Shown: piece after piece, positions 4,851 through 45,419 of the stretch
Layout: the number at the start of each line of letters is the position of its first letter
Numbering within the stretch: position 1 is the stretch's first letter
IMG/VR virus record: IMGVR_UViG_3300033067_001096
Coordinates: 1 to 48,442 of that record
Reading direction: 5' to 3' (one strand)
Length of the DNA: 48,442 nucleotides
DNA from: a virus
Taxonomy: Duplodnaviria; Caudoviricetes
Position numbers and translations under genes: made by a program
Notes under the pieces: generated by a model
What the model saw: only the letters and a program-made list of their open reading frames with translations
What the model was told of the DNA's origin: nothing
Database searches by the model: none

Positions 4851-5564
4851 TCAGCCTCCAAAATACTTCAGCGCGGCGGTCACGATCGCGAGGAGCATTG
4901 CACCCAGCGCCATGAACCCGGTCTTCGATGAAGGCACTGGCGCCTTCGCCGGCTCGTTCTTTGGCGTCTGCACGATCACGACCTGCGTCTCGTCAGCCTT
5001 CGGCCCGTCGACGAGGACGACGTCCGGCTTCGTGCCGGCGCCCTGCTGCACGGTCTTCGCGGGCTCGGTCACTGCCGGATCCTCGCCGTAGCCTTCGGCC
5101 TTCAGCGCCGCGTCGTACTCGCGCGCGTAGCCGCCGATCAGCCGCGCGTCGTCGGTGCCGTTTATGATGCGGCGGGCGTTCACGAAGTCCGACTTGCCCA
5201 ACGTGATGTAGTCGGCCAGCTTCTTGCCAGTGAACCACCCCTCGGACATGCCGGTGACGAGGATCGGCGCGGCGAACCTCGCCTGCAGCAGGAGCTTCGG
5301 CTCGGCGACGAAGTCGACGCCGAGGGCCGCCCCCGCCTTTTCGTAGTTCTTGCGCCACGTCAGCTGCACGTAGCCCATGCCGACGTAGGGGTAATATTTC
5401 TTGGCGCGCAGGTACTTCTCGCCGCCCATCTCGCGCACCGGCTTCATGGTGTGGGCGCTCTCGTGCCACGCCGTGGCGAGCACGTACGCCGCCTGGTTGC
5501 GCAGCAGCCCCGCCGACTTGCAGGCATTGATGATGAGGCGCGTATCGCCTAGGTTCAGGTCCAC
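4851..5564 (-). CDS. Endolysin, GH19/chitinase-like, with a C-terminal membrane anchor
   Basis: AYVLATAWHES, YVGMGYVQLTW..NY, ARRIINGTD; terminal hydrophobic helix. Confidence 0.85.
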   Translation of the reverse strand: MDLNLGDTRLIINACKSAGLLRNQAAYVLATAWHESAHTMKPVREMGGEKYLRAKKYYPYVGMGYVQLTWRKNYEKAGAALGVDFVAEPKLLLQARFAAPILVTGMSEGWFTGKKLADYITLGKSDFVNARRIINGTDDARLIGGYAREYDAALKAEGYGEDPAVTEPAKTVQQGAGTKPDVVLVDGPKADETQVVIVQTPKNEPAKAPVPSSKTGFMALGAMLLAIVTAALKYFGG

Positions 5565-5595
5565 CGCGTCTCTCCTGTGATGTAGCTCGCTTGGT

Positions 5596-8136
5596 TCACG
5601 ACCGTGGGTAGCCCCAGATTGAGTAGATCACAGTACGCCCTGCTCCGGCACCGACGCTGGCCTTGAAGTAAAGCGTCTGCTCTGTCCTCGTATTGAGGCC
5701 GGCAGCAGACGGGCTCACGGTTGATGCGAGGTTGGCGGCGGTCGATGCCGCCAAAGTAGACCCCGCCGCAACGATCTGCGTACCAGCGGCGGCCGGGGCG
5801 GTGTAGAGCCCATAGACCATGGCGGAAACATCAGCGCTCGGGTTCTCGCCGCGAACGCGGGAGATCAGGTAGGACGCGCAGCTGTATTTTATGGCGAGCG
5901 CCTGGTCCGCCGTCGAGTTGCAGTCGAGGGTTAGTTCAAACAGCAGGACCTCCTGCTGTGGGTAGTTGATGCCGCCCGAGTTGTTGACGGTCTTGTTGAG
6001 GCCGGTGCCGCTGTCTACGATGAAGTTTGCCCTGGCCATACCTGCGGCATTGACGTTGCTGCTGATTGCGTAGTTGTCGCTCGTGCCCGCAGCCACTTTG
6101 ATGCCCTGGACGCAACCCGCCACGCAAACATTACCTTCAACAATGAAGTTGTTTTTGTCGGGGGCCGCCTCAAATCCAACCGCTATAGCGCCGCCACCTA
6201 ATCGGGGCTGGAAGTGGTTGCCTTTTACGATGACACTCCCATTATGACCTGCATTCGGCGCGAAATATACGCACCTTGCCCCGCTGTTGATGAAGTTGTT
6301 AACGATCGTGCATTGACCATCGAAGTTTCCCGACACAAGTATATCGGCCGTACCTTGAATAATGCCGTTTCCAGTATGGTTGCCGTGCATCACCCAATTA
6401 TACGCGTCGTTGATAACGACACCAGACAAGAAAGCACCGCCAAGCGTACTATCGGTAAGAATAAGGTTAAGTCCTGTTGCGCCGGTAGCGCTCCCGATAC
6501 AAACAGAGAACGGGCCGCTAAGGTCCTGGTGCATGATGGAGACTTCAAGGGCGCCGGTATTTAACAGTATTCCATAGTAGCTAACCGGGGCGAGAAGATA
6601 CCAAGTCACGGTGCCATCGGTGATCGGCATGGCATACGGGCGTAGCGTGGGAGCGCTCCCCCCGGATGTACCAGCGACATAGCACATCATGATATAACCT
6701 CCTAGTTCGCGGAGGTCGTATTTGTTGTAGGCCGTGGTGTTAGTCCGGGCAGCAACCGAGCCGGAAATAGTTTGCTGGTCCGGCAGACCCGCGCCGTCGA
6801 TCCACGGATGGTCGAAAGCGTTTCTTTCGAGAAAGTGGCCGCCAGAAATCTCCACGAGAGCCCCGCCGTAGGCCTTACTGGCCTCGCAGCGGTAAATTTT
6901 ATTGTCGCCCCCCTCCATGAGAATGGCCCACTTACCGCCGTAGACGATGCAGTGGTCAAGAGTGCAATTAACCGCCTGCGCTCCGTGGAACCAAACAGTT
7001 GGGTATGTGATTGCGGAGATCGTTGTGGGGGAAGAGGGAAGACCATAGATGCCTGACCCGTAGATCGTTAGGTCTTTGATTGTGGTCTTGCCGATGGTGA
7101 CGTTGAAGACGCAGATGTCAGACGTGCCAGCGTGGATTGTCGCCGACTGGTTTTCTCCGCGAAGCGTCATCGGAGCGACAGCGATATTGACCTGGCTCAG
7201 GCACATGTAGGCGCCGTTGACAGCCGGGAAGAAAACAGTCCCGCCCGAAGCCCAAGTGACGTTGAGATGGTTGACCGCGCCCTGAATTGCTGCGTAGTCG
7301 TCCGTGACGCTATCGCCCTTGGCCCCAAACGCGCAGACGTTGTTGAAGCCACCTGTCTGGAATACCCAATAGCCGCCGTCCGTGGCGTGAATGGTTCCGT
7401 CAGACCGGTAACGATCTGCTGTTCTTACCCACCCGTTGTGCGTAGTCGGCATGGCCATGACGCGAACGCAGGGGATAAGCCCTGCCCGGTCTCCAAAAGC
7501 GTAACGCCCGCCGAGCGTGATGTTCTGGATCGACGCACCGACGCTTACCCCCGCCGCTGCTGTCCACGAGGATATGACGTACGAGGAAATAGAGGGGATT
7601 AGGGCGGTAATGGCGGCAAGCGCGTTGACCGCAGCTGTCCCGGCGGCGCCGGCCGCTGCGATGTCGCCGCCATCGCCGCCGTCGACCATATTTCCGTCGG
7701 CGTCGGCGATCCAGAAATGCCCCTCGTCTAGCAGTGTTAGCGTACCCGGCGACGCGCTCTCCGTGAGCGGCGTCTTCCACGACCGCGACACGCCGTCCCA
7801 CAGGCGCTGCACACGCCGCGTCAACGCGTCGATACCCTCCTCGAAACGGGCGCCGAAGACGCCACCCAGGCTTACGTCCTCGGCCTGACTGATAGGGGGC
7901 TCGACCGACAAGACCCACGTCGTCGGGGTCCACACACCGGGCGTGTTGATCGTCACGGAATAGCCGCTGTCTGACCCGACGCCGGACACGGTGTAATTGA
8001 CGCCCAGCGTAAGCAGGGTGTCGTCCGCGTAGACCTTGAGATGGGTCGAATTCTCAAGCTCGAAATTGTGCGTCAGCGGGTTCGTCCAGCCGGTGCCGGA
8101 GATCAGCTTGCGCGACGACTTTTCGGTGACCGTCAT
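5596..8136 (-). CDS. Tailspike/tail fibre with a pectate-lyase-like beta-helix (putative depolymerase)
   Basis: T7-like N-terminal adaptor-binding region; NV..FGAKGDSVTDDYAAIQ.A...GGTVFFP beta-helix cap; Asn/Gly-rich repeats. Confidence 0.85.
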   Translation of the reverse strand: MTVTEKSSRKLISGTGWTNPLTHNFELENSTHLKVYADDTLLTLGVNYTVSGVGSDSGYSVTINTPGVWTPTTWVLSVEPPISQAEDVSLGGVFGARFEEGIDALTRRVQRLWDGVSRSWKTPLTESASPGTLTLLDEGHFWIADADGNMVDGGDGGDIAAAGAAGTAAVNALAAITALIPSISSYVISSWTAAAGVSVGASIQNITLGGRYAFGDRAGLIPCVRVMAMPTTHNGWVRTADRYRSDGTIHATDGGYWVFQTGGFNNVCAFGAKGDSVTDDYAAIQGAVNHLNVTWASGGTVFFPAVNGAYMCLSQVNIAVAPMTLRGENQSATIHAGTSDICVFNVTIGKTTIKDLTIYGSGIYGLPSSPTTISAITYPTVWFHGAQAVNCTLDHCIVYGGKWAILMEGGDNKIYRCEASKAYGGALVEISGGHFLERNAFDHPWIDGAGLPDQQTISGSVAARTNTTAYNKYDLRELGGYIMMCYVAGTSGGSAPTLRPYAMPITDGTVTWYLLAPVSYYGILLNTGALEVSIMHQDLSGPFSVCIGSATGATGLNLILTDSTLGGAFLSGVVINDAYNWVMHGNHTGNGIIQGTADILVSGNFDGQCTIVNNFINSGARCVYFAPNAGHNGSVIVKGNHFQPRLGGGAIAVGFEAAPDKNNFIVEGNVCVAGCVQGIKVAAGTSDNYAISSNVNAAGMARANFIVDSGTGLNKTVNNSGGINYPQQEVLLFELTLDCNSTADQALAIKYSCASYLISRVRGENPSADVSAMVYGLYTAPAAAGTQIVAAGSTLAASTAANLASTVSPSAAGLNTRTEQTLYFKASVGAGAGRTVIYSIWGYPRS

Positions 8137-34641: not shown

Positions 34642-34811
34642 ACCTTGCGGCTCCCTGCCTTAACGCGATAGCGCGGCTTGCCCAGCCACACAAAGCCGAT
34701 CGGCTGCACAAGCGTGGACACGTAGACGTCCATCGTCGGTGCGACCACCGGACTATCGTCGAACAGCTGCCACCACGACTGCTCGTCGCGTATGCCCCAC
34801 CACGAAGTCAT
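34638..34811 (-). CDS. Hypothetical 57-aa protein (MTSWWGIRDEQ...)
   Basis: Not in the ORF track; ATGA overlap with terS and with the next gene. Confidence 0.55.
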   Translation of the reverse strand: MTSWWGIRDEQSWWQLFDDSPVVAPTMDVYVSTLVQPIGFVWLGKPRYRVKAGSRKV

Positions 34812-35365
34812 TTCTCCGCCTCTTGGTGCTCGATTGTCGGTACCGGCGCCTCGATGCCGGCGCGCAGCGTGGCGATCATGGCGATCGCCAAGGCGCGCGG
34901 ATCGGCGTTCACGTTGAGCTCGATGGCTCCTGTCACGTTGACGTCGGTCTGGTCGGTCCAGTCCTTGCGGCGGCGGTTCTTAAGCCAGAAGATCATGGCC
35001 GTCGTGTCGGGCGGCACATGCTCGATCGTATTGACGCGGGTCACCTCGCCCTTGTGGAAGAAAATCTTCTCGCTCGGGAACGAGTAGCCGCGAGCGCGGT
35101 GGTAGAGCGTGGCCTCGACCGCATCGTCGGCGATGTCCTTGCCGATGCGCAGCGCAGCGTCGAATTGCGGGTCTCGAGCACGCCAGAACTGCACCGTGCG
35201 AGCGGTCACGCCGAACGTCTCGGCGATATCGAAATCGGTAGCGCCCGACAGGCCAAGCTCCTTGGCGTCGGCCAGCATTTCCTGCCGGTGCTCGCTCAGC
35301 AGGTCTCGCCTTGTGCGTCGCATGTTTGGGGGGCGAAAGGGGGTCTCAGTCGCGGCTTCTGACAT
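34808..35365 (-). CDS. terS: Terminase small subunit
   Basis: GATD..IA..FGV..RT...W HTH; V...LY.RA.GY; HVPPDTTAMIFWLKNR...W.D. Confidence 0.88.
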   Translation of the reverse strand: MSEAATETPFRPPNMRRTRRDLLSEHRQEMLADAKELGLSGATDFDIAETFGVTARTVQFWRARDPQFDAALRIGKDIADDAVEATLYHRARGYSFPSEKIFFHKGEVTRVNTIEHVPPDTTAMIFWLKNRRRKDWTDQTDVNVTGAIELNVNADPRALAIAMIATLRAGIEAPVPTIEHQEAEK

Positions 35366-35397: not shown

Positions 35398-35437
35398 TCT
35401 ATGGTGCTTGACAAGAACCATAGACCTGAGGCAGGAT
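35398..35437 (+). promoter_or_regulatory. Early promoter inside a 27-bp palindrome (operator)
   Basis: TCTATGGTGCTTG-A-CAAGAACCATAGA (one mismatch) contains TTGACA; the -10 element is weak. Confidence 0.6.
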
Positions 35438-35490
35438 GCAGTCACACCAGAAGACCGGGTGAGTTCTTTGACATCGCTGGCAACCAACAA

Positions 35491-35555
35491 GTCGAAACGC
35501 GGGGCAATCCGCGTCGTGACCGGAGCGGCTCTCCGGCGCCTGAATGAGACAAGCC
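35491..35555 (+). ncRNA. Type II hammerhead ribozyme 1 (predicted cleavage after C35515)
   Basis: GUC-GAAA-[CGCGGG GCAA UCCGCG]-UC / GUG-A-CCGGAG CGGCU CUCCGG-CGC / CUGAAUGA-GAC; 3' AGCC pairs with loop GGCU. Confidence 0.8.
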
Positions 35556-35574
35556 CAAAACAAAGGAACCGACC

Positions 35575-35796
35575 ATGACCGTGCTCGTATGCTACCCGTC
35601 GAAAAAGGTGCTCGCCGCCTCAGTAGGCCACCCGCTGCGGTACCGTGAAACTTCACTGTTCGGCGAAGAGTTCAAGCGCGACGGCACCGTAACGGTTGCC
35701 TACCGCCCCTCTATCTGGCCCTCACAGGTGGCCAAGGGGCGGGAATTTTTCGCCCGTGTCACCATGGCCAACGGAAAAATTGCCAAAGTCGAGTAG
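35575..35796 (+). CDS. Early hypothetical protein
   Basis: AAGGA RBS; YPSKK.L...VG..LRY.ETSLFG.E...G resembles a small phage family. Confidence 0.75.
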   Translation: MTVLVCYPSKKVLAASVGHPLRYRETSLFGEEFKRDGTVTVAYRPSIWPSQVAKGREFFARVTMANGKIAKVE

Positions 35797-35859
35797 CCGA
35801 AACCCGCCCCAAGCGGGTCGCGACCAGACTGACCGCTGGCGCCTGAAGATGGCAGGTCA
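35796..35859 (+). ncRNA. Type II hammerhead ribozyme 2 (predicted cleavage after C35819)
   Basis: GCC-GAAA-[CCCGC..GCGGG]-UC / GCG-A-CCAG ACUGACCG CUGG-CGC / CUGAAGA-U-GGC; 3' GGUCA pairs with loop UGACC. Confidence 0.85.
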
Positions 35860-35876
35860 ACACAAAGGACACCCCC

Positions 35877-36140
35877 ATGGTAGACCACGAAATGATCACC
35901 CTCGACATGGCCGCCACCGAGCGCGCAGCGCTCGCCCCGCCAAGCATGACCGTCTTCGAAGCCACGATGATCGCTGAAGGCTGCTGGGAACTCGCCGGCT
36001 ACGAGCCCGACGAAGAGACCTCAATCGCCGCCTGGCAGCTGCTGATCGACACCGGCGTATGCTGGCAGCTGCAGGGGGCCTTCGGCCGCCAGGCGGTCGC
36101 GCTGATCGAGGCCGGGATTTGCGAGAGGAGGGCGGCATGA
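35877..36140 (+). CDS. Early hypothetical protein
   Basis: AAGGA RBS; AWQ.LIDTG.CWQLQG.FGR.A..LIEAG.C. Confidence 0.75.
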   Translation: MVDHEMITLDMAATERAALAPPSMTVFEATMIAEGCWELAGYEPDEETSIAAWQLLIDTGVCWQLQGAFGRQAVALIEAGICERRAA

Positions 36141-36529
36141 TCGACTACCCTGACGGCTACCGGCCCGGCCCGATCTGCGGCGTGCTCTCCACGGCTATCT
36201 GCGCCGGCGTGTCATTTTACGCCGCCCACGCATGGTTCAAGGCGCGCAAAGGCGCGAAGTGGAAAGGGTCGACAACGGTCTCGGTACGCGACGAGGCGCT
36301 CAAGCACTTCGGAGTGAAATTCGAAACGAAGCGGTGGACGCGCCCCCGCCCTACAGTCAAGACCTTCGCCGCGAAGCACGCGGCTAAGGGGGCCACCTAC
36401 ATGCTTCGCGTTCGTGGTCATGTCGTGACACTGCGCAACGGCTGGGTGTTAGATCAGCACGAACGGGCAGTGGCGTGCCTGCACGACAGGCGAAACTGCA
36501 TCGTCACCCACTCGACGCGCATCCTATAG
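36137..36529 (+). CDS. Early hypothetical protein, possible papain-like Cys-His-Asp fold
   Basis: CGVLSTAI..G.SF..A...F and YMLRVRGHVVTL.NG.VLD; ATGA coupling, GGAGG RBS. Confidence 0.6.
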   Translation: MIDYPDGYRPGPICGVLSTAICAGVSFYAAHAWFKARKGAKWKGSTTVSVRDEALKHFGVKFETKRWTRPRPTVKTFAAKHAAKGATYMLRVRGHVVTLRNGWVLDQHERAVACLHDRRNCIVTHSTRIL

Positions 36530-36597
36530 CCGAAACCCTCGCCCCAAGGCGAGGGTCGCGTGACCGCTGACCGGGTCCGCCTGAAGATGGCAGGTCG
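36529..36597 (+). ncRNA. Type II hammerhead ribozyme 3 (predicted cleavage after C36557)
   Basis: GCC-GAAA-[CCCUCGCC CCAA GGCGAGGG]-UC / GCG-U-GACC GCUGACCG GGUC-CGC / CUGAAGA-U-GGC; 3' GGUCG pairs with loop UGACC. Confidence 0.85.
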
Positions 36598-36614: not shown

Positions 36615-37367
36615 ATGACCGAAATGCGAGAAGCCAGGATCGTGATGCCGGAGGTGCAAGCGGTCGGGTCGAAGCCCCACGACGCGCTGCGCGCGGCACT
36701 CTGCGAAGCCTTCGGCGGCTTCACCATGACCTACGGCGTCGGCGGCTGGGTCGACGACACCGGAGCGGTTATCCGCGACAACGTCTGCATCTACGACGTG
36801 GCTATGGAGCGTACCCTGGCCAACTACGGGCGGCTGCGGGCCCTCGCGTGCGAGGCGGGACGGGCGCTGGGACAACGGTCGGTGTACCTGCGCTACCCCT
36901 CCGGCTCGACGGCGATCATCAGCCTAGAGCCGTCTGAGACGGCGGAGAAGCCAGACGATGCGAGCGGCGCCACGAGCAGCCTCGGGCATATCGGCGACCT
37001 GTCGAGCGTGCGTGGCGTAGGTCTGCAGGTTACCGAGGAAAGCAAGGCAATCAAAGACGCCCTGCTCTACGGTGCCGGCTTTACGAAGGGCGGCAAGCAC
37101 GTCCCAGTGGCCGGGGTATCCACGAAGCGCCTGCCCCAGGCCGGCGAGATATGGCTGGCCCGGGATGGCCTGACGGTCGTCGCGGTTCTGAAGCAGGCTA
37201 CCCTCCTCGACGGCGGCTTCGACTGCGTAACGCTCACGAGGGGCTCCACGGCGCTCAAGGAGGGCTATCAGATCGTCGTCGACCTGGACGGCCGCTACAT
37301 CCGTGGAGTGCCGCAGGAGAGCCACCCGCTGGACTTGGTAACGTACCGGTCCATCTTCCTCGCCTGA
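36615..37367 (+). CDS. Early hypothetical protein (N-terminal DUF3574-like alpha/beta domain plus a C-terminal domain)
   Basis: AGGAG RBS; FGGFT...G.GGW.D..G.V..D....YDVA...Q.SVY. Confidence 0.65.
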   Translation: MTEMREARIVMPEVQAVGSKPHDALRAALCEAFGGFTMTYGVGGWVDDTGAVIRDNVCIYDVAMERTLANYGRLRALACEAGRALGQRSVYLRYPSGSTAIISLEPSETAEKPDDASGATSSLGHIGDLSSVRGVGLQVTEESKAIKDALLYGAGFTKGGKHVPVAGVSTKRLPQAGEIWLARDGLTVVAVLKQATLLDGGFDCVTLTRGSTALKEGYQIVVDLDGRYIRGVPQESHPLDLVTYRSIFLA

Positions 37368-37385: not shown

Positions 37386-37414
37386 AGCCCCGCCGGCAAC
37401 GGCGGGGCTTTTTT
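37386..37414 (+). terminator. Intrinsic terminator ending the early operon
   Basis: AGCCCCGCCG-GCAA-CGGCGGGGCT followed by a T run. Confidence 0.9.
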
Positions 37415-37417
37415 CGT

Positions 37418-37627: not shown

Positions 37628-37880
37628 GGTGTAGTCGGTAGTGGTGTAGTCGGTGTTTCCACAAGCCCCATATATATAGGAAGGATATAGAAACGGATTA
37701 TATCTATCTCTTACGTTACAGGTATATTATTGACTACACTACTACACTTATCGTTAGAACGTAAGGTTTTTCAACTGGTTGGCTCTGTAGCCGGTAGCTG
37801 TAGTCACGTTTTTGGCGTAGCCGCACGACTACGCAACTCGATGACGGCGCTCCCGAGGCGCTCCATCGGTGGTGTAGTCA
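37628..37880. other. Putative replication origin
   Basis: Repeated GTGTAGTC/GACTACAC and GTAGCC units in both orientations around a very AT-rich core (about 37670-37732), right at the end of the primase gene. Confidence 0.6.
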
Positions 37881-43466: not shown

Positions 43467-45419
43467 TTAGACCTTTGCTTTCGTGTAAGCCCAGAACGAC
43501 GTGATCTCCGCCTTCAGCGGCAACCCTTCGTCCCACTCGTCGTTGCGTTCCATGAGTTCGAGCAAGTCCGCCCGGGCCTCCTTCTCGTAGCACTCGAACG
43601 GCTCGGTCACGATCTCGTCGTGCGTGTGCATGACGGTCGGCATGAACTCTCTGTAGCGACGCCAGGAGCGGTCGTCGTTCTGGTGCCACCCCTTGTTGAG
43701 ACGCTTCAGGGTCCGTCTCAAGATCGACGCCGCTGTCGCCTGGGTCACATTTTCGCAGTTGTGGACAATGAAAGGTCCGCTAGCGCCCAGAACCACGAAA
43801 CGCGATCGGGGTCCGGCGTCGGCGAGGTCATAGACAGGTTCCGGTGCCAACGATAAAGCAGCGTGGAGTGCGGCGCGCCCGTCCGCGCCGCTAGCGCCAG
43901 CATGTTTATAGGCAGGTTCGTGCGCCGGTTTCGGGCCTGCGCTGTGCGCGTCGCCCAGATACAGTTTCCCGGTTCGTAGCCTCTCTCGTTGTCTCTCCGC
44001 TCCAGCGTCAAGCCTCGCTGATAGGTCGGCCCCATATCGGCCCAGAAGGCGGCGAAGCGCCGCCAGCGCGCGCAAACCGATACGCCCCGCCCGCCATAAT
44101 TCTTCCACGCTTGGTGCGAGGGTAGCGTGCAGCGATCCACCATCGAGCGCCATACCCCGTAGACCGGGTGCCGCGTCATGCCGTGGGTTCGATGCTTCGA
44201 CCCGATCCGCTCTGACGTTTCGCACCCGCATGATTGCGGCGAAGGGCGACGATTTGGCCGCGTCCACCCATCGGAGCCAACTACTGTTTCGGCCCCGCAC
44301 TTGCACCGGCACACCCACAGCGCGGACTTCCCGCGCGCGCGCGTCGGGCCTCTCCGCAAAACCGTCAGGGAGCCGAACTGGCGCCCGGTCAAGTCCGTGG
44401 CACTTCCAGGCATCTTGCCACCCTTCCACCGTCAGAACCTTGTGATCGGGCGTCATGTCGACGCCGTCCAGTGGTACGGTAAACTTGTATCCTTGTTTAA
44501 GCAAGCCCCCGTGGCGCACCCACTCGACGCCGTCCCACAGGAGGTCACCATCACACACGTCGACGATGCGTTTCCAGCCGCCGTCCGTAGCGACAAGAGT
44601 GTCGGCGCCGAGACACAGCTTGCCGTACCAGGCCGCCGTGCGGCCGTAGCCCTTGATGAAGGTCAGCTGATAGCGGTCCACCAGCTTCTTCGTCTTCTTG
44701 TCCTCGATCTCGCGCCATTCCCACTTGATGCCGGGGTAGGTCAGCAGCCGGCCGCAGGGCAGCGCGCAGAACAGCGTGCCGCCGAGGTAGCTCCGATCGT
44801 AGACATAGGCCACACGGCCCGCCACGTAGGGCGTATCCGGGTTCTCGATGGCGCTGTTCGCCGCGCCCCACAGGCCGTAGGACCCCTCGCGCCCGTGCTT
44901 GCCCCAGAAGGCCTTGGCCCAGGCGTTGGTCGCGCGCCAGTCTTCGACGACGCGCAGCGCGGTGGCGGTGTCCAGATAGACGCCGTAGTTGGTCGCCATC
45001 GCCGTCAGCGCGCCGAGCCCGCCCCCAAACCCTAGTGATAGGGTTGGGACCTTGCCATAGGCCTGGCGGGCGTCCTTGGCGCTCTTCTCCTCGGCGAGGT
45101 ATTCCTGCCACAGCTCGACCGCGTCGCGGCCGAGAAGCGCCGCCGCCGTCATGATGTAGATGTCCGGCAGCTTCGGATCCGCGTCGTTGGTCCTGAAGAC
45201 GTCGAGCACAGCGTCGCCGCCCGGGCTGGCGGCCAGCCAGGGCAGAACCCGGGCCTCGATCGCCGACCAGTCGCCCCAGACCAGCGTCCGCTGCGGCGCC
45301 GCAATGAACGCCGGCCGCAGCAGCATGGACAGCTTCTTGCTCGGCGGGCTCCCGGCATACTTGCCGGGAACCGCGTCAAGGCTGTGGAAGGCGTCGAGAA
45401 AGGCAGGGGAGACGGTCAT
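43467..45419 (-). CDS. Family A DNA polymerase, C-terminal (catalytic) subunit, intein-containing
   Basis: Motif A DWSAIEARVL, motif B RQ..GKVPTLSLGFGGG, ENVTQA, motif C HTHDEIV. Confidence 0.92.
   Translation of the reverse strand: MTVSPAFLDAFHSLDAVPGKYAGSPPSKKLSMLLRPAFIAAPQRTLVWGDWSAIEARVLPWLAASPGGDAVLDVFRTNDADPKLPDIYIMTAAALLGRDAVELWQEYLAEEKSAKDARQAYGKVPTLSLGFGGGLGALTAMATNYGVYLDTATALRVVEDWRATNAWAKAFWGKHGREGSYGLWGAANSAIENPDTPYVAGRVAYVYDRSYLGGTLFCALPCGRLLTYPGIKWEWREIEDKKTKKLVDRYQLTFIKGYGRTAAWYGKLCLGADTLVATDGGWKRIVDVCDGDLLWDGVEWVRHGGLLKQGYKFTVPLDGVDMTPDHKVLTVEGWQDAWKCHGLDRAPVRLPDGFAERPDARAREVRAVGVPVQVRGRNSSWLRWVDAAKSSPFAAIMRVRNVRADRVEASNPRHDAAPGLRGMALDGGSLHATLAPSVEELWRAGRIGLRALAALRRLLGRYGADLSARLDAGAERQRERLRTGKLYLGDAHSAGPKPAHEPAYKHAGASGADGRAALHAALSLAPEPVYDLADAGPRSRFVVLGASGPFIVHNCENVTQATAASILRRTLKRLNKGWHQNDDRSWRRYREFMPTVMHTHDEIVTEPFECYEKEARADLLELMERNDEWDEGLPLKAEITSFWAYTKAKV
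43745..44413 (-). CDS. HNH homing endonuclease-like protein encoded in an alternative frame inside the intein
   Basis: DLTGRQFGSLTV, WVCRCKCG, SCGC, THGM...VY.VW.SM..RC, YGGRGV.VC.RW..F..F..DMG, TLER.DN..GYEPGNC.WAT...QARNRR. Confidence 0.88.
   Translation of the reverse strand: MPGSATDLTGRQFGSLTVLRRGPTRARGKSALWVCRCKCGAETVVGSDGWTRPNRRPSPQSCGCETSERIGSKHRTHGMTRHPVYGVWRSMVDRCTLPSHQAWKNYGGRGVSVCARWRRFAAFWADMGPTYQRGLTLERRDNERGYEPGNCIWATRTAQARNRRTNLPINMLALAARTGAPHSTLLYRWHRNLSMTSPTPDPDRVSWFWALADLSLSTTAKM
43758..44615 (-). mobile_element. Intein (286 aa) in the DNA polymerase, inserted at YGKL/CENVTQA
   Basis: Block A CLGADTLVAT..GW..I, block B TPDHKVLT, block F VYDL, terminal VHN followed by +1 Cys. 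Confidence 0.92.

Follow-up and report, generated by a model that had tools for sequence, protein, structure and literature searches.

Three pseudoknotted type II hammerhead motifs occupy the gaps between genes of a small transcription unit in an uncultured phage. Judged by descriptor matches and covariation, all three elements are real and well supported as RNA structures. Our favoured reading, to which we give a rough probability of 0.58, is that the ribozymes would constitutively process the message of this unit into protected, context-independent mRNAs. Two features add to the known picture of such arrays, namely a boxA-like leader and gene swaps at the ribozyme edges; neither was part of the original prediction made for this DNA.

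Genome setting of the ribozyme unit

The window, by which we mean the whole stretch of DNA analysed, is the entire virus record (48,442 bp). It encodes a podophage-type head and tail, a terminase, a primase-polymerase, a family A DNA polymerase and a GapR-like protein, and we infer from the GapR-like gene that the host is alphaproteobacterial. The terminase is 36-37% identical to the terminases of BPP-1 and of the Caulobacter phage RapA. The ribozyme unit is a 2-kb plus-strand block of four small genes without assigned function, which diverges from the gene for the terminase small subunit and faces that for the primase (Table 1).

Table 1. Features of the ribozyme unit and its left neighbour (positions in the window)
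Feature	Position	Strand	Evidence or remark
Terminase small subunit gene; left boundary, divergent from ribozyme operon	34808..35365	-	phrog_309, E 6e-39
Predicted host sigma-70-type promoter, TTGACA, 18 nt spacing, weak -10 (CAGGAT)	35408..35437	+	Seen by reading the sequence
boxA-like motif GTTCTTTGACATCG, between promoter and ribozyme 1	35463..35476	+	Position shared in L117, L246, L265, L273
Type II hammerhead 1; A6a core CUGAAUGA, pseudoknot GGCU:AGCC, predicted cut 35515/35516	35491..35555	+	Sequence, descriptor
73-aa gene; overlaps ribozyme 2 by its stop codon; related strains carry a replacement	35575..35796	+	phrog_37117
Type II hammerhead 2; extra U after A9, pseudoknot UGACC:GGUCA, predicted cut 35819/35820	35796..35859	+	Sequence, descriptor
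87-aa gene, DUF7417; homologues in 3 of 4 related operons	35877..36140	+	Pfam PF24192, E 2e-8
130-aa gene; stop codon overlaps ribozyme 3; 175 other letters instead in strains of two studies	36137..36529	+	phrog_3754
Type II hammerhead 3; extra U after A9, pseudoknot UGACC:GGUCG, predicted cut 36557/36558	36529..36597	+	Descriptor; Rfam RF02276 27.8 bits, below gathering
250-aa gene, last of unit	36615..37367	+	phrog_3543 on residues 8-68
Intrinsic-terminator-like hairpin and T run, facing primase gene	37386..37415	+	Comparable terminators close the unit in L117, L265, L273, L284

A consensus promoter scan of the window did not pick up the promoter listed in Table 1; TTGAC is found 55-57 nt upstream of the boxA-like motif in the window and in loci L246, L259 and L265. 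At its N-terminus the DUF7417 ORF is about 23 residues longer (35877-35945) than its homologues in L117 and L273, which begin at the position of an ATG near 35946. No significant likeness linked the C-terminus of the 250-aa protein with the final gene of L273.

Between the terminator and the end of the primase gene, an AT-rich gap (37650-37860) carries repeated GTAGTC/GACTAC words that also occur in L117 and L273; it is perhaps an origin or a protein-binding site. The second DNA polymerase ORF (43467-45419, minus strand) holds an intein-like insert with ends that read by eye as C-L-G-A-D ... V-H-N/C, for which an intein family search returned no match. Within this insert, on the same strand in another frame, lies an HNH endonuclease ORF (43745-44413; phrog_374, E 3e-54).

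Structure and detection of the three hammerheads

A type II descriptor located the three elements on the plus strand where they had been predicted, with G12 at 35494, 35799 and 36532 and C17 at 35515, 35819 and 36557. Stem II has 3 bp in every copy, stem III has 7, 6 and 9 bp in copies 1, 2 and 3, and stem I consists of 3 bp, a 1-nt bulge and a hairpin of 4-6 bp. Stems I and III are each capped by a loop, stem II is open, and the three-way junction carries the CUGANGA ... GAAA ... UH core with one insertion per copy, each with precedent. The variant cores (CUGAAUGA in copy 1, CUGAAGA with an additional U in copies 2 and 3) and the pairings between loop I and the 3′ tail (Table 1) are those originally described; each pseudoknot has 4-5 pairs, in a class defined by at least four. 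Between each predicted cut and the next start codon lie 57-59 nt, the earlier figure of 58-60 being the inclusive count. Copies 2 and 3 indeed begin at a stop codon, as the TAG of the ORFs ending at 35796 and 36529 supplies the first G of stem II. The descriptor, which allowed one inserted base after A6 or A9 and whose variant cores were picked after the copies had been seen, matched three times in the window and never in 200 dinucleotide shuffles (both strands).

The search with Rfam models that had been proposed as a check turned out differently, as the window has no match at the gathering score (37 bits for RF02276). Only copy 3 matches Hammerhead_II below this cut-off (27.8 bits, E 0.006, with the insertion unmatched), and copies 1 and 2 are not listed. 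The copies share with the type II hammerheads of Perreault 2011 and RF02276 the permutation, the core, the GUC site, the short stem II and the 4-5 bp pseudoknot, but insertions in the core and a longer stem I keep them below the cut-off. With RF02276, the orthologous copies of L265 and L273 reach 37-56 bits, some of them above gathering. When folded without pseudoknots, copy 2 takes another structure in which stem I is disrupted, also in its 3′ product, and stem II of copy 3 does not form.

Both core variants resemble known ones. An extra A after A6 was reported by Perreault 2011 to have low activity (PMC3088659), and an extra nucleotide between A9 and G10.1 occurs in the CChMVd viroid hammerhead, where a U raised the rate 3-4-fold (PMC3705267, PMC1636495). 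Copy 1 is therefore probably slower than copies 2 and 3. The A6a core of copy 1 also occurs in seven other viral type II hammerheads; among 38 A6a pattern matches, 30 failed the descriptor and were discarded, 27 of these looking like one coding sequence. The extra U after A9 is common in the phage family (12 of the 27 neighbouring hammerheads in which the search pattern did not fix it), and a text search of the accessible part of the Perreault 2011 supplement gave no match for an extra-U type II variant.

Covariation and placement across the family

A pattern built from copies 2 and 3 found 115 viral and 97 genome loci. Absence of covariation in related phages had been named as grounds for abandoning the original prediction; stems and pseudoknot do covary. 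In 184 distinct matches, chosen by sequence pattern alone so that the stem pairs tested were unconstrained, the inner pairs 1-4 of stem III are formed in 99, 99, 95 and 84% of cases, against 61, 70, 48 and 54% with shuffled partners. For stem I the corresponding figures are 91, 92, 91 and 76% against 47, 41, 71 and 44%, and up to six pair types occur at a stem position. The pseudoknot has at least four Watson-Crick pairs in 39 of 61 distinct loops, compared with 13.6 +/- 3.0 when tails are swapped (maximum 24 in 2000). Since the relatives are not independent, these shuffle controls overstate significance and are not probabilities. In a hand-picked alignment of 27 sequences, 12 of 17 pairs change on both sides and 92.8% of cells are paired, against 29-42% in slid controls, with the pseudoknot columns at only 72% because the loops align in two registers. 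The near-identical strain L056 was set aside as covariation evidence, with 31 of 6901 bases different and none of them in a ribozyme.

This covariation argues against the motifs being inactive relics, for which the low-activity core type of copy 1 might speak. Equally, the fragment between copies 2 and 3 might refold from two half-ribozymes and ligate into a circle, as the two copies share the same stem II strands and their halves are thus compatible; those halves, however, are held by only 3 bp, and Perreault 2011 reports having sought circular or spliced products and found none (PMC3088659). We regard relics or circles as highly improbable.

The placement of the ribozymes is conserved as well. 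Counting the stops of ORFs of at least 40 codons, and after two spurious overlapping calls were dropped from 127 hammerheads, 92 of 125 distinct viral hammerheads have a stop codon 2-10 nt before G12, against a mean of 5 at random positions; successive 9-nt windows further upstream hold stop codons in 7, 11, 2 and 3 of them. A start codon follows within 100 nt in 119 of the 125, mostly 15-46 nt after the core. Ribozyme and ribosome-binding site thus make up nearly the whole intergenic space. The genome matches to the extra-U type II pattern (L279-L358) lie mostly in Planctomycetota-titled records, often several per genome; others are from Paenibacillus and Aneurinibacillus.

Gene exchange between conserved ribozymes

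Four related phage contigs, linked to the window by terminase (57-60%) or primase (46-52%), carry orthologous units with a promoter, a boxA-like motif, 2-5 hammerheads, a terminator and mostly different genes. There are two hammerheads in L117 and five each in L265/L073, L273 and L284/L246. Ribozymes flank single genes or short blocks of variable identity, the arrangement of clustered phage hammerheads. Among the five units, DUF7417 occurs in four and a DUF932 gene in two; the other three genes of the window unit have no match in the other four units at E 0.001. The core of the first ribozyme is canonical in L117, L265 and L273 and has the extra U in L246, so A6a is no fixed trait of that position.

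Two individual copies in these units depart from the usual core. One of the five hammerheads of L273 (4724-4790, plus strand) has C instead of U16.1 and may be inactive. The last hammerhead before the DUF932 gene of L284 (minus strand) has the core UUGAAGA with G8 kept, that is, C3U without its usual G8A partner.

Further afield, two descriptors detected no hammerheads in the cultured phages BD1, Nsp-JY18 and RapA, which are distant although two of them share the layout; at that depth the feature is therefore dispensable. Octadecabacter virus BD1 (L118; 46470-47360, minus strand) is one of those with the shared layout; in its counterpart of the operon, three intergenic spaces are occupied by long hairpins interrupted by an internal loop (-24 to -30 kcal/mol), which may be host-nuclease sites in the same role. 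A blastn search against 50,697 GenBank phages found no relative of the unit, and 80 distant loci from a terminase-small-subunit alignment yielded no convincing hammerhead, only two weak descriptor matches, one of type II and one of type I.

At strain level, contigs from public runs (X6, X10, X15) show that motifs are kept while the genes between them are swapped at ribozyme edges. A 997-nt contig of X6 tracks the window through the promoter and ribozyme 1, then runs through 451 other letters and rejoins in ribozyme 2. In X6 and X10 contigs, from two studies, 36141-36525 is replaced, rejoining at ribozyme 3. The joints of strain contigs fall at 35555-35813 and 36140-36526, and loose contig ends in X10 and X15 lie at 35555, 35795, 35870, 36528 and 36600. 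Over 35400-35555 the X6 strain differs by 14 substitutions and 12 gap letters in the promoter, the leader and distal stem III; none touches the boxA, the core, stems I-II or the pseudoknot, and the rebuilt stem III is again fully paired. The public-run data are contigs, with X10 and X15 probably from DNA; X20, the only metatranscriptome, contributed one 179-nt contig spanning cut 3, which is uninformative on RNA ends.

That related strains leave the window sequence at ribozyme edges could also mean that the elements persist chiefly because they offer homologous joints at which gene cassettes recombine, with catalysis incidental. Copies are more alike within a genome than between genomes (stem I likeness 0.68 against 0.61, permutation p 0.0016; the nearest neighbour sits in the same genome for 13 of 20), as such joints would be. 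However, the stems change in sequence but preserve pairing and core, which is contrary to what selection for DNA homology would produce, and the short loose-ended contigs, at 80% likeness, may derive from other phages with the same ribozyme family. We therefore find this explanation very unlikely.

A boxA-like motif heads the unit

In all five units, (C/T)TCTTTGACA(T/C)CG stands after a promoter-like site that begins with TTG and before the first ribozyme. The motif resembles the boxA consensus given for E. coli and B. subtilis (PMC13753749). G001 is a bin titled Novosphingobium; in 18 of 31 genomes of its family the pattern YTCTTTGACATYG occurs 1-4 times, and the reversed control had one match. 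We examined 24 genome loci with the pattern; 11 are situated 202-247 nt upstream of 16S rRNA and 3 closely follow tRNA-Ile/tRNA-Ala, so that 14 are rRNA leaders or spacers, the places of rRNA boxA. For an inferred host and the one family tested, the phage motif thus matches the rrn boxA of the host group and lies near a promoter. L073 is identical to a contig in the G001 bin, but L027 lies in a bin titled Bifidobacterium, which makes binning weak host evidence.

Outside the clade of the window the pairing of boxA with a hammerhead is rare: it occurs in 6 of 41 viral boxA-pattern matches, five of them from this clade, and in 3 of 120 metagenome matches, and is therefore not general. The 35 remaining viral matches failed the descriptor, and two of these (L256, L270) resemble a U3/A8 hammerhead by eye. 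L256 (minus strand, about 5000-6150 on that strand) has a promoter, a boxA-like motif and the U3/A8 hammerhead-like element, and L270 shares the leader. After that element, L256 carries three copies of another intergenic structured repeat, which has no Rfam match at E 1. Our literature search, of mostly non-subscription literature, found no paper on boxA beside phage hammerheads, and the accessible part of PMC3088659 contains no mention of boxA that we found.

Like the boxA of the rRNA Nus complex (PMC5725501, PMC13753749, PMC10250234), the motif is promoter-proximal, and it matches the sphingomonad motif of the 16S leader and 16S-23S spacer. Unlike rRNA boxA, it stands at the head of a phage unit that codes for proteins, and ribozyme 1 would sever it 39 nt downstream. 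No N-like protein was identified in the window.

The motif brings in a reading centred on polarity, which is compatible with processing and makes product stability secondary: cutting would detach finished genes from the polymerase and deny Rho its loading sites, with boxA and Nus factors sustaining transcription. Its place directly before the first ribozyme in all five orthologous units and its match to sphingomonad rRNA boxA would fit, and Nus factors are reported to prevent Rho termination (PMC5725501). The unit, however, is only 2 kb long and densely coding, hammerheads rarely follow boxA in metagenomes, and the main role of Nus on rRNA is described as folding (PMC5725501), so that boxA might instead aid ribozyme folding. 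On balance we consider an anti-polarity device unlikely. A further, rather unlikely reading is that this phage group builds its variable gene unit as a mimic of an rRNA operon made of RNA parts only, in which a host boxA would load Nus factors, ribozyme 1 would free the boxA leader, the further ribozymes would serve as processing sites and cassette-exchange joints, and the core variants (A6a slow, extra U fast) would tune the output of each gene.

Predicted processing of the message

For the favoured reading of constitutive processing, we propose the following course of events. Host polymerase would start near 35445 and the boxA-like motif would recruit host Nus factors. Each ribozyme would then cut after GUC, likely during transcription, and its halves, held only by the 3-bp stem II, would part. 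The upstream piece would keep its stop codon and carry stem III and a cyclic phosphate at its end; the downstream piece would begin with a paired 5′-OH end, the stem I hairpin. One probably early message would in this way give a short leader and three mRNAs. Every gene would get standard, protected ends whatever its neighbours, as with a natural RiboJ insulator, so that genes could be swapped between ribozymes.

Self-processing of a polycistronic message, as first proposed for this DNA, remains the best reading and is supported by the conserved placement; its description as early is probable from the layout alone. The proposed 5′-OH, hairpin-capped mRNAs fared unevenly. Under the type II permutation each product keeps one closed hairpin: the upstream piece has stem III as its 3′ end, the downstream piece stem I as its 5′ end. 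Folding with pseudoknots left out predicts hairpin ends in all three 5′ pieces and in the 3′ pieces of copies 1 and 3; for copy 2 the cap is not part of the lowest-energy fold. Cleavage as a translation switch is unsupported by folding, as the ribosome site after copies 1, 2 and 3 becomes easier to open by only 0.4, 2.6 and 1.0 kcal/mol, respectively, on cutting.

Cleavage could conversely work as a decay timer, exposing the message to host nucleases and so shortening early gene expression, as in glmS, whose cleavage is reported to lead to degradation (PMC6765202); the different cores within one unit (A6a, extra U) could then set different rates. Against this stand the new 5′ ends, predicted to be paired without overhang in copies 1 and 3, the stable hairpins that end all 5′ pieces, and the position of the cuts, which lie past the stop codon and some 58 nt ahead of the start and leave both genes intact. 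We judge a decay timer to be decidedly unlikely.

Relation to known systems

In the early region of T7, the transcript is processed by RNase III. The likeness originally drawn to that region holds as an analogy of function: here too the transcript would be cut between genes to give structured ends, as with RiboJ, which is reported to stabilise its mRNA (PMC7190835). Unlike in T7, no host enzyme would be needed, and 5′-OH and cyclic phosphate ends are predicted. The analogy does not extend to a T7-type early region with a phage RNA polymerase gene and RNase III sites; RNA polymerase families had no match among 35 of the ORFs, scanned against PHROGs, and the terminase is closer to BPP-1-type podophages.

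Pseudoknotted type II hammerheads, their clusters flanking variable prophage genes and the mRNA-processing hypothesis were all described in Perreault 2011, where three triple arrays cleaved in vitro and one in E. coli (PMC3088659). The prophage arrays of Azorhizobium caulinodans, Agrobacterium tumefaciens and Clostridium scindens resemble the window unit: a polycistronic phage RNA holds three ribozymes within about 2 kb, the genes that they flank vary, and processing to gene-length mRNAs has been proposed (PMC3088659). The window unit differs in lying behind a boxA-like motif, in its podophage-type genome and in strain-level swaps at the ribozyme edges. This type of ribozyme, such arrays and the idea of processing have been known since 2011, so the interpretation is not new and the finding would not surprise a specialist.

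The function of bacterial and phage hammerheads has been described as still unresolved (PMC6765202), and this locus leaves their role unsettled. It nevertheless forms a compact test object, with a promoter, a boxA-like motif, three ribozymes in two core variants and a terminator within 2 kb, accompanied by four natural orthologues and by strain variants, and could be cloned and studied in a laboratory alphaproteobacterium without the phage.
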